From Diadema antillarum (Eukaryota): a stretch of DNA of 64,000 nucleotides. A program made the position numbers and the translations under genes. Positions 41,218 through 43,108 of this stretch are shown here, in pieces. The notes beneath the pieces were generated by a model, which was given only the letters and a program-made list of their open reading frames with translations, did no database searches and was not told the DNA's origin. Position 1 is the first letter of the stretch, and each line of letters begins with the position of its first letter. The stretch is from positions 502,567 to 566,566 of the forward strand of contig NW_027271421.1 of NCBI RefSeq assembly GCF_040938485.1, given 5' to 3'.

Positions 41218-43108
41218 ATGTCAATGTGTCATTGATGAAGGATTCCAAGGGAAAGAGCGGCAGCTCAAACCACCGGGTGAATCACAAAAACACGATCGCA
41301 TGGTTCGCATAGAATCTCGAGAAACACAGCAGCCCTGCGATGCTCCGATACCATCGGCTAAAGCCATGGACGCTACACGGACTCTAAAGACGGAGGAGCT
41401 AGTTTCCCCAACACTCCGAGATGTTGATATGGATCAACTTGCAGATCAGCTGGAATTGTTGTCTCCAACGGAAGACACACAAAAATCATTTCTTGCACAT
41501 GCAGAAGAGGCGTGTGCGCTCAAGGAATCACCTGTCGACGTCATGGAGCTTTCGGAGGAGGTTTACTCTGCCGATGAGCCTGAACCTGCCTACATGGTAG
41601 AATCTATTCAAGAAATTCAGCTAGTTGAAGATGTAATGTCTCCTGTCCTCTGCTTAGCTGAACCAGCTAGTAGGTCGTTGGCCTTTTCATATGAAACCGA
41701 AGCTGCATACCTTGAGCCCATGGAAGAACTTCAGATCTGTGAGGAGGTACAGGAAGTGTTGTCTCCTGTCCTGGAATCGAGCGTTGATTCGTTACCTTTG
41801 ATGCTAGCAGAAGTTGAGTCTGTCACAGAGCTGAGGAAAGACGTGGCAGAACCTATGAGATTGGAGCAACGCATGGAGAAAAGGTTAGAGTTGGCAGAAC
41901 CTGTAATGCTTCAAGAACGAATGGAGACACGGGTAAAAATGGCCGAACCTGTTATGATGGCGAAAAAGTTAGAGTTGGCAGAACCTGTAATGCTTCAAGA
42001 ACGAATGGAGACACGGGTAAAAATGGCCGAACCTGTTATGATGGCGAAAAAGTTAGAGTTGGCAGAACCTGTAATGCTTCAAGAACGAATGGAGACACGA
42101 GTAAAAATGGCAGAACCTGTAATGATGGTGCAACACATGGAGGAAAAAATGGCGTTGGCAGAACGTGTGATGATGGAGCAACATATTGAGGAAAGTTTAG
42201 AGTTGGCAGAACCTGTAATGATGGAGGAAAAGTTGGCGTTGGCAGAACCTGTAATGCTTCAAGAACGAATGGAGACACGAGTGAAAATGGCAGAACCTGT
42301 AATGATGGTACAACACATGGAGGAAAAATTGGCGTTGGCAGAACCTGTGATGATGGAGCAACATATTGAGGAAAGTTTAGAGTTGGCAGAACCTGTAATG
42401 ATGGAGCAAAAGTTGGCGTTGGCAGAACCTGCAATGCTTCAAGAACGAATGGAGACAAGGGTAAAAATGGCAGAACCTGTGTTGATGGCGAAAAAGTTAA
42501 AGTTGGCAGAACCTGTGATGCTGGAAGAACGAATGGAGACACGAGTAAAAATGGCAGAACCTGTAATGATGGTACAACACATGGAGGAAAAATTGGCGTT
42601 GGCACAACCTGTGATGATGGAGCAACATATTGAGGAAAGTTTAGAGTTGGCAGAACCTGTAATGATGGAGGAAAAGTTGGCGTTGGCAGAACCTGTAATG
42701 CTTCAAGAACGAATGGAGACAAGGGTAAAAATGGCAGAACCTGTGTTGATGGCGAAAAAGTTAGAGTTGGCAGAACCTGCGATGCTGGAAGAACGAATGG
42801 AGACAAGATTAAAGATGGCAGAACCTGTAATGATGGTACAACACATGGATGAAAAAACGGCGTTGGCACAACCTGTTATGATGAAGGAAAAGTTAGAGTT
42901 GGCAGAACCTGTGATGATGGAGGCACATATAGAGGAAAAATTAGAGTTGGTAGAAGCTCCCGAGTTGGATCAAGTACTTGATGCTACCCCAGCTTTGGAA
43001 GCCGATGACATCCTGCCAAAACAACAGAAGCTCGCTCCAGCCAAGGAAGATCTCGAAAAGACAGAGGCCTTCGACATAATCACAAGAATTTTGCAAGTAG
43101 GGCATCAG
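41218..43108 (+). CDS. PARP4: PARP4 ortholog, large 1.9 kb exon. It contains a lineage-specific tandem array of more than 25 'LAEPVMM'-type 12-16-residue coding repeats (about 41840-42960).
   Basis: A 630-codon open frame runs between a strong acceptor (ttgttatttttgttaatccctaccacag) and a CAG|GTAAGG donor. Phase fits both neighbours. Its position corresponds to the low-complexity region preceding the C-terminal MVP-binding part of human PARP4. Confidence 0.7.
41840..42960 (+). repeat. In-frame coding tandem repeat array. The base periodicity is 39 nt (13 codons), organised into about 78 nt and about 300 nt higher-order units.
   Basis: Near-identical DNA blocks recur, for example ttagagttggcagaacctgtaatgcttcaagaacgaatggagacacgggtaaaaatggccgaacctgttatgatggcgaaaaag, which repeats back-to-back. 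The protein motif is (L/M)(E/A)LAEPVMM/L followed by acidic or basic spacers such as QERMETRVKMAEPVMMAKK. Confidence 0.95.

Follow-up and report, generated by a model that had tools for sequence, protein, structure and literature searches.

A probable coding minisatellite of 25 in-frame units in the largest PARP4 exon of the sea urchin Diadema antillarum

Coding minisatellites are in-frame tandem arrays with a higher-order structure and conserved edges, as in the variable number tandem repeat (VNTR) domains of mucins and in involucrin. We describe such an array in exon 25, the largest exon, of a PARP4-like gene of the sea urchin Diadema antillarum, using a stretch of 64,000 nucleotides (nt) from the RefSeq assembly GCF_040938485.1 (contig NW_027271421.1, positions 502,567 to 566,566 of the forward strand), hereafter called the window, along which all positions given below are counted. 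Among PARPs, the combination of VIT and vWA domains after the catalytic domain is unique to PARP4, and the human protein has in addition an N-terminal BRCT domain (residues 1-94). In PARP4, a disordered region of over 300 amino acids (aa) is encoded by the largest exon, and its 'sequence and length ... is highly variable among vertebrates'; for primates, the ratio of nonsynonymous to synonymous substitution rates (dN/dS) of this exon (exon 30) is 1.75 (Daugherty et al. 2014, PMC4038475). The MINT domain of human PARP4 (1562-1724) anchors the enzyme to repeats 3-5 of MVP (Kickhoefer 1999; Lodwick 2025, PDB 9bw6/9bw7), long disordered regions bridge the folded domains of PARP4, and conservation of the MVP residues in contact with PARP4 is reported for vertebrates only (Lodwick et al. 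2025). In sea urchins, vault preparations of S. purpuratus contain bands of ~200 kDa that 'may be' VPARP/TEP1; homologs are present in the genome, and the identity of the bands is unproven.

The borders of D. antillarum exon 25 (acceptor ...ccacAG/A and donor CAG/GTAAGG, the slash marking the junction) are the same as those of the RefSeq protein XP_072174381.1 of Diadema setosum, and the exon is divided as follows.

41218 to 43108, plus strand: exon 25 of 27, the largest exon, of 1891 nt (630 codons and a split codon); counterpart by position of human PARP4 exon 30.
41218 to 41845, plus strand: N-flank of exon 25, non-repeat and acidic, of 628 nt and 209 aa (net charge -31), with 95.2% nucleotide and 93% amino acid identity to D. 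setosum.
41846 to 42949, plus strand: tandem array with 25 units in frame, of which 17 are 48 nt and 8 are 36 nt long; 1104 nt and 368 aa in all.
42950 to 43108, plus strand: C-flank of exon 25, of 159 nt and 53 aa, the end of which starts the C-terminal helical domain; 94.3% nucleotide identity to D. setosum.

Tandem Repeats Finder (TRF) detected one array at ~41873 to 42934, whose periods of 84, 180, 264 and 444 nt are nested in one another; the highest score was 1458. A 12-nt core, GGCAGAACCTGT, is present in 25 copies from 41845 to 42901, with a spacing between successive copies that is always 36 or 48 nt, and an 18-nt version of the core had no copy outside the array on the coding strand of the window. 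Since the core is confined in this way, the repeat is local and does not belong to a dispersed element. The units belong to five types.

Unit type A, 16 aa: AEPVMLQERMETRVKM
Unit type B, 12 aa: AEPVMMAKKLEL
Unit type C, 16 aa: AEPVMMVQHMEEKLAL
Unit type D, 16 aa: AEPVMMEQHIEESLEL
Unit type E, 12 aa: AEPVMMEEKLAL

All follow the same plan, with a nearly invariant AEPVM(M/L) head, a variable spacer of 3 or 7 residues, and a tail of the form (L/V)-x-(L/M). The units are placed in the order A' AB AB ACDE ACDE AB ACDE AB AC(E'D'), which explains every period found by TRF: AB accounts for 84 nt, ACDE for 180 nt and the sum of both for 264 nt, and the period of 444 nt follows from the same order. Two kinds of higher-order block are recorded below; besides these, two blocks of 264 nt are 97.0% identical to each other.

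41894 to 42061, plus strand: two identical 84-nt AB blocks (AB1 = AB2, 84/84), the youngest duplication.
Within 42062 to 42685, plus strand: three 180-nt ACDE blocks (42062-42241, 42242-42421 and 42506-42685), which share 96.1-97.2% identity; one AB block separates the second from the third.

The encoded segment, of net charge -30, is composed mainly of Glu (20.9%), Met (16.6%), Leu (12%), Ala (10.6%) and Pro (6.5%). A first-pass annotation of the window had noticed a large in-frame tandem array in the big PARP4 exon, and the TRF result, the copies of the core and the frame that stays open throughout all bear this out. The same annotation proposed units of 39 and 78 nt, whereas every spacing is 36 or 48 nt, and 'more than 25' units, where the exact count is 25 including a degenerate first unit. 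Its higher-order repeats of ~300 bp were roughly right, the actual periods being the four detected by TRF, and its description of the segment as Met/Glu/Pro-rich agrees with the composition; the remark that this is 'unusual' in a vault protein has to be set against an exon already known as hypervariable in both sequence and length. Searches for relatives of the array were negative. No similar repeat was found in other proteins by a word-indexed protein search with exon 25, which covers only shorter proteins (its PARP4 matches were all of at most 1050 aa, and it missed XP_072174381.1, of 1909 aa, though this protein is in the collection). The array had no match to any Pfam family or known motif, and no Pfam family was found on exon 25 or on the downstream exon candidates. 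Degenerate 'proto-units' in the N-flank were also considered and rejected, the best score with a hidden Markov model (HMM) of the unit being -2.8 compared to 3.2 reached by shuffled flanks.

The D. setosum ortholog was identified by an exhaustive HMMER search, queried with the last exon (86 aa), which returned a 1909-aa protein with 91% identity at the C-terminus. This protein is XP_072174381.1, named in RefSeq 'protein mono-ADP-ribosyltransferase PARP4-like [Diadema setosum]'. The second match of the search, a giant repetitive protein of 3442 aa with a C-terminal immunoglobulin (Ig) domain, was discarded as no homolog of the PARP4 C-terminus, the similarity being repeat-driven and spread over 14 short stretches at 34% identity. 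Synteny between the D. setosum genomic locus and the window spans 18 to 46 kb of the latter, the introns being 76-94% identical. The D. setosum array consists of 19 units (36, 48 or 51 nt long) that encode 269 aa, compared to 25 units and 368 aa in the window, a difference of 99 aa. For the first unit, W1 (41846-41893), and for the last four units, the nearest relative is a D. setosum unit (92-98% nucleotide identity).

42770 to 42949, plus strand: the last four units, W22-W25, each closer to a D. setosum unit than to any window unit; W22, W23 and W25 pair with D16, D17 and D19.

The presence of these orthologous edge units indicates that the array is older than the split from D. setosum. The interior units W2-W15 and W17-W21 have their nearest relatives within the window (97-100% identity, with four identical pairs), and one interior A unit is identical between the window and D. 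setosum. The C-type unit occurs once in D. setosum compared to four times in the window, and the higher-order copies of the window are 96-100% identical to one another, versus 94.3-95.2% for the orthologous flanks of exon 25. No comparable high-identity higher-order structure was seen in the D. setosum array, where the best period is 168 nt with 73% matches. Together, these sequence comparisons, made on one haplotype per species and, among echinoderms, between two Diadema species, indicate that the interior of the array has been expanded or homogenised in the window lineage since the split from D. setosum. A recent expansion had been proposed from the window alone, and the 97-100% identity of the interior and the 25 versus 19 units agree with it; length polymorphism of the array within the species is therefore plausible. 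The word 'lineage-specific', used in the same proposal, applies only if it is taken to cover at least two diadematid urchins, which have the array in common. The change in copy number, the homogenised interior and the conserved edges are those of a minisatellite, and the array is a textbook coding minisatellite, already present though undescribed in the RefSeq protein.

Several lines of evidence concern the coding status of the repeat. The frame of exon 25 is open across the array and continuous with the 628 nt of non-repeat sequence upstream and the 159 nt downstream, and exons 26 and 27 join exon 25 in phase and end at a TAG stop codon. The open frame is by itself weak evidence, because all unit lengths (44/44 in both species, including one of 51 nt) are multiples of 3. 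The sole indel within a unit in either species, in the 51-nt unit of D. setosum, is of one codon. In the D. setosum RefSeq model, the array of that species is part of the coding sequence (CDS), with exactly the same junctions. The exon 25 donor is conserved in D. setosum, as are both downstream acceptors, those of exons 26 and 27. Among 30 distinct within-type variants, which are partly non-independent owing to gene conversion, 12 were synonymous compared to ~5.4 expected (binomial p = 0.004), giving a nonsynonymous-to-synonymous ratio (N/S) per site of 0.33, and the two control frames showed no excess (4/30 and 7/30 synonymous). The synonymous excess, in conjunction with the conserved splice sites, argues for translation of the array, which we consider well supported at the level of sequence. 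The weight of the open frame is further lowered by an open reading frame (ORF) of 277 aa that lies antisense to the array on the minus strand (42036-42869); it is a mirror by-product of the stop-free unit and no sign of a gene.

To place the array in its selective context, we used the divergence between the window and D. setosum, with synonymous substitutions per site (dS) of ~0.12-0.2. The dN/dS values along the gene were as follows.

Exons upstream of exon 25: 0.18
N-flank of exon 25: 0.24
C-flank of exon 25: 0.33
Whole C-terminal domain (XP_072174381.1 residues 1740-1909): 0.26
Exons 26-27: 0.30

By these estimates, the non-repeat parts of exon 25 are under ordinary purifying selection, and the pattern of variants within the array points to moderate purifying selection on its peptide sequence. 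If so, the sequence of the array matters as well as its length. No signal of positive selection was obtained, with dN/dS of 0.24-0.33 in the flanks of exon 25 and N/S of 0.33 within the array. At the level of single residues, the head of the unit across the 44 units of the two species retains A in 44/44, E in 42/44, P in 43/44, V in 40/44, M in 37/44 and, at the last position, M or L in 44/44.

The gene that carries the array was reconstructed by recovering the 27 exact coding exons of D. setosum and projecting their boundaries onto the window.

19249 to 44753, plus strand: coding part of the PARP4-like gene, with 27 exons, a CDS of 6024 nt and 2007 aa, and 0 internal stops.

Exon lengths are identical between the window and D. 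setosum across the 27 exons except for exon 25 (1891 versus 1597 nt, a difference of 294 nt). Upstream of exon 25, stop-free segments of the plus strand matched in order the Pfam families PARP (PF00644, E = 1e-27), VIT (PF08487, E = 1e-36) and VWA_3 (PF13768, E = 5e-18), and PARP_reg was found on the window exons with 26.4 bits, just below the cut-off of 26.8. PARP4 orthologs aligned by tblastn as colinear exons from 22.4 to 38.4 kb of the window; some of the orthologs bear the Pfam labels PF26156 and PF26166. The best PDB match of the D. setosum ortholog is human PARP4 (9bw6/9bw7, E = 8e-194), in one colinear alignment of urchin residues 136-1141 to human residues 240-1215, with no detectable similarity past human residue 1215 in that alignment, and the crystal chains of human PARP4 HD-ART, 8sx1 and 8swy, match the same ortholog at 1.8e-71 and 4e-50. 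Motifs are seen at the expected H, Y and E positions (LLFHSS, GSGIYFGD and EDEYTVY), as judged by eye. The window thus encodes a catalytic (ART) domain preceded by the helical regulatory domain, with VIT and then vWA placed C-terminal to it, as among PARPs only in PARP4, and by its sequence the predicted gene is a PARP4 ortholog; the first-pass annotation had named it so, in agreement with the Pfam PARP/VIT/vWA matches, the RefSeq name and the match to human PARP4. Identity to the PARP4s of fish, cnidarian, mollusc and placozoan is uniformly 41-49%, which gives no phylogenetic placement. A BRCT family was not detected by Pfam at E <= 0.1 on the full-length XP_072174381.1, and permissive tblastn with BRCT-bearing N-termini of fish and mammals revealed nothing convincing upstream; only ~135 urchin residues precede the region that aligns to human residue 240.

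Downstream of the array, the end of exon 25 and the two remaining coding exons encode a small domain.

43732 to 43864, plus strand: exon 26, of 133 nt, part of the C-terminal helical domain; acceptor tatcAG/GAC and donor CTT/GTAAGT, both conserved in D. setosum.
44491 to 44753, plus strand: exon 27, which closes the coding sequence with the TAG stop and encodes the last part of the all-helical C-terminal domain, MINT-equivalent by position.

The split codon of exon 27 (T/GG) encodes Trp, and the exon is 91% identical to the C-terminus of XP_072174381.1. The domain starts ~45 residues past the array and is predicted by AlphaFold2 (AF2), at low confidence, to be all-helical with 8 helices. We compared it with the human MINT domain (residues 1584-1724, sequence from PDB) and found no significant similarity by BLASTP (E = 4.3) or hhalign (E = 0.35 over 10 columns); a two-species profile of the domain retrieved nothing from PDB at E <= 10, and phmmer likewise gave no support for MINT homology. 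Foldseek on the low-confidence AF2 model was uninformative, and the spliced domain had no match in the word-indexed search of shorter proteins. A tether to the vault interior, as suggested in the first-pass annotation, is not supported by these data, given that the urchin domain shows no significant similarity to MINT and that the link between PARP4 and the vault is established only in vertebrates. The vault-tether reading is a reasonable analogy that is unproven and had no support from any test run.

We consider it likely that the array is a coding minisatellite in a hypervariable PARP4 exon, acting as a length-variable spacer or linker. Since the split from D. setosum, duplication or homogenisation of the 84-nt AB and 180-nt ACDE blocks has remodelled its interior; the mechanism would be unequal crossing-over, replication slippage or gene conversion acting on units that are almost the same. 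The array would be translated as a Glu/Met-rich, acidic segment of low complexity punctuated by Pro, and this segment would separate the catalytic-VIT-vWA body of the enzyme from the small C-terminal helical domain. Most likely it would serve as a spacer or linker of variable length, comparable to the disordered region that exon 30 encodes in vertebrate PARP4, and the AEPVM(M/L) head, repeated 25 times, may also act as a multivalent surface of short motifs. If urchin PARP4 is in vaults, a difference of 99 aa between close relatives would alter the reach of the enzyme body from its anchor; the 99 extra residues would correspond to a contour length of ~36 nm, or ~15 nm as a helix.

A few results weigh against the spacer interpretation. 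AF2 in single-sequence mode drew the array as long helices, with a mean predicted local distance difference test (pLDDT) score of 43 and most of the array below 50. By a charge-hydropathy index, the array falls just inside the 'ordered' range, and the N-flank is classed as 'disordered'. A 'flexible disordered spacer' is for the array an assumption, and the segment may form short helices instead. Translation rests on a predicted gene model and on a substitution pattern of small counts (30 variants, partly non-independent), the length and assembly of the array are known from one haplotype per species, and the C-terminal domain has no significant similarity to MINT. The hydrophobic moment of the array was under that of shuffled controls (z = -3.5 at 100 degrees and -5.3 at 90 degrees), the only periodicity was a 2-residue alternation (z about +5), and the 24 prolines are placed 12 or 16 residues apart, with one gap of 32 residues. 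A coiled coil is unlikely because of this lack of helical amphipathicity, the regular prolines and the low pLDDT, and the helical or coiled repeat initially envisaged for the array is not borne out. Reading the repeat as a 'Mets motif' of the Cu(I) type was ruled out, since the number of MxxM motifs is 0.

According to a first alternative, the array would be a fast-evolving interaction surface in which the 25 heads bind a cargo, a vault component or a pathogen factor, the turnover in copy number and unit type would be adaptive, and the exon would be the urchin equivalent of mammalian exon 30. The same exon is recurrently positively selected in primates and bats and was proposed as a host-pathogen interface (Daugherty et al. 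2014, PMC4038475). The almost invariant head in 44 units of two species, next to spacers diversified into five types, the change of six units in copy number since the D. setosum split and the purifying selection on the peptide sequence would all fit a binding surface. However, the dN/dS of 0.24-0.33 in the flanks and the N/S of 0.33 in the array give no signal of positive selection, the conservation of the motif can equally stem from homogenisation by gene conversion, and there is no known partner, nor does the array match Pfam or a known motif; we regard this explanation as unlikely. A more specific version, in which the AEPVM(M/L) array is a selected platform of multivalent short linear motifs, so that in sea urchins an arms-race exon adapts by the number and arrangement of a conserved Met-rich motif and not by point substitution, seems quite unlikely. 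Were it true, each motif would dock a cargo, a component of the vault lumen or a pathogen protein, and the repeat number would tune avidity.

A neutral, slippage-prone minisatellite, tolerated in a disordered linker with neither sequence nor length mattering, would account for the low-complexity composition in an exon known to tolerate large changes in length, for the 99-aa difference between close relatives with the rest of the gene undisrupted, and for the lack of a confident fold in AF2. It does not explain why the synonymous excess is limited to the coding frame, or why, at a dS of ~0.12-0.2, both species keep the A-E-P head almost unchanged, and the retention of orthologous edge units together with a sole within-unit indel that is in-frame also speaks against it, making this account very unlikely. 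Finally, the perfect identity of two 84-nt blocks is of the kind that assemblers can mis-count, and the array could in principle lie outside the protein, as a mis-expanded repeat of the assembly or as a cryptic intron. We find this extremely improbable, given that a homologous array, differing in internal structure, is found at this position in the independently made assembly of another species, that the RefSeq model keeps the array in the CDS, and that the frame, the splice sites and the substitution pattern all fit coding sequence.

Other observations in the window concern the rest of the gene and its surroundings. Intron 25 (43109-43731) is of 623 nt in the window versus 442 nt in D. setosum, and ~1.9 kb of D. 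setosum intron 8 (locus positions 8237-10110) has no counterpart in intron 8 of the window (24848-29180); both differences in size are probably due to transposon or indel events. At the acceptor of exon 16 (33697-33717), the D. setosum sequence ...tgtAG/TTATTTTCA reads TG in the window. An in-frame AG located 18 nt downstream (CCCAACAG/GCTTAC) is present in both species, and its use would drop 6 residues (LFSTQQ); the difference could be a splice-site shift or a sequencing difference. Immediately past the catalytic domain, exon 10 (30194-30377) encodes SSDDDSDDTTDSDSDDDFE, a stretch of acidic, Ser/Asp-rich sequence that is conserved in D. setosum and looks like a phospho-acidic linker. Exons 23-24 (39689-40672; XP_072174381.1 residues 1171-1231) encode a short helical segment between the vWA region and exon 25, with a sub-threshold 14-3-3-like Pfam match (E = 2e-4) and a resemblance to the tail of an Acropora PARP4-like protein (BLASTP E = 4e-4), and this segment may be a conserved helical module without a name in vertebrate domain maps. 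Upstream of PARP4, a neighbouring gene on the opposite strand is represented by three exon-like ORFs (minus strand, 8066-8614, 8873-9241 and 11857-12525) that match successive parts of the carboxylesterase profile PF00135 (E = 4e-14, 2e-8 and 4e-17).

The array can be compared with three described systems. With respect to the human MINT domain, the urchin C-terminal domain is alike in position, in size (~130-170 aa) and in helices (8 predicted, MINT having at least 8), and differs in having no significant sequence similarity. Among coding minisatellites, the urchin array is alike in its units of multiples of 3 nt, its higher-order blocks, its homogenised interior with diverged orthologous edges, and its change in copy number; it differs in that the host protein is an intracellular ADP-ribosyltransferase and the unit a Met/Glu-rich 12- or 16-mer with Pro at position 3. 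The third comparison is with the vertebrate PARP4 exon. Urchin exon 25 is likewise the largest exon, placed after VIT-vWA and right before the C-terminal domain, domain-free and fast-changing, including in length, so that the position equivalent to the vertebrate variable segment, which the first-pass annotation had assigned to the array, holds for this counterpart of the largest exon. The tail of a frog PARP4 ortholog, for example, is Pro/Ser-rich, whereas the urchin array is Glu/Met-rich. Should the repeated AEPVM(M/L) head turn out to be a binding motif, it would provide a starting point for finding the ligands of the largest PARP4 exon; otherwise, the array is a routine coding minisatellite in a linker. 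The comparison extends to an echinoderm the view of the largest PARP4 exon as an evolutionary hot spot, with a different mode of change: vertebrates are described as changing this exon by point substitutions under positive selection, with dN/dS > 1, while the urchin exon changes by gain and loss of 12- and 16-aa units under purifying selection, with dN/dS of ~0.24-0.33.

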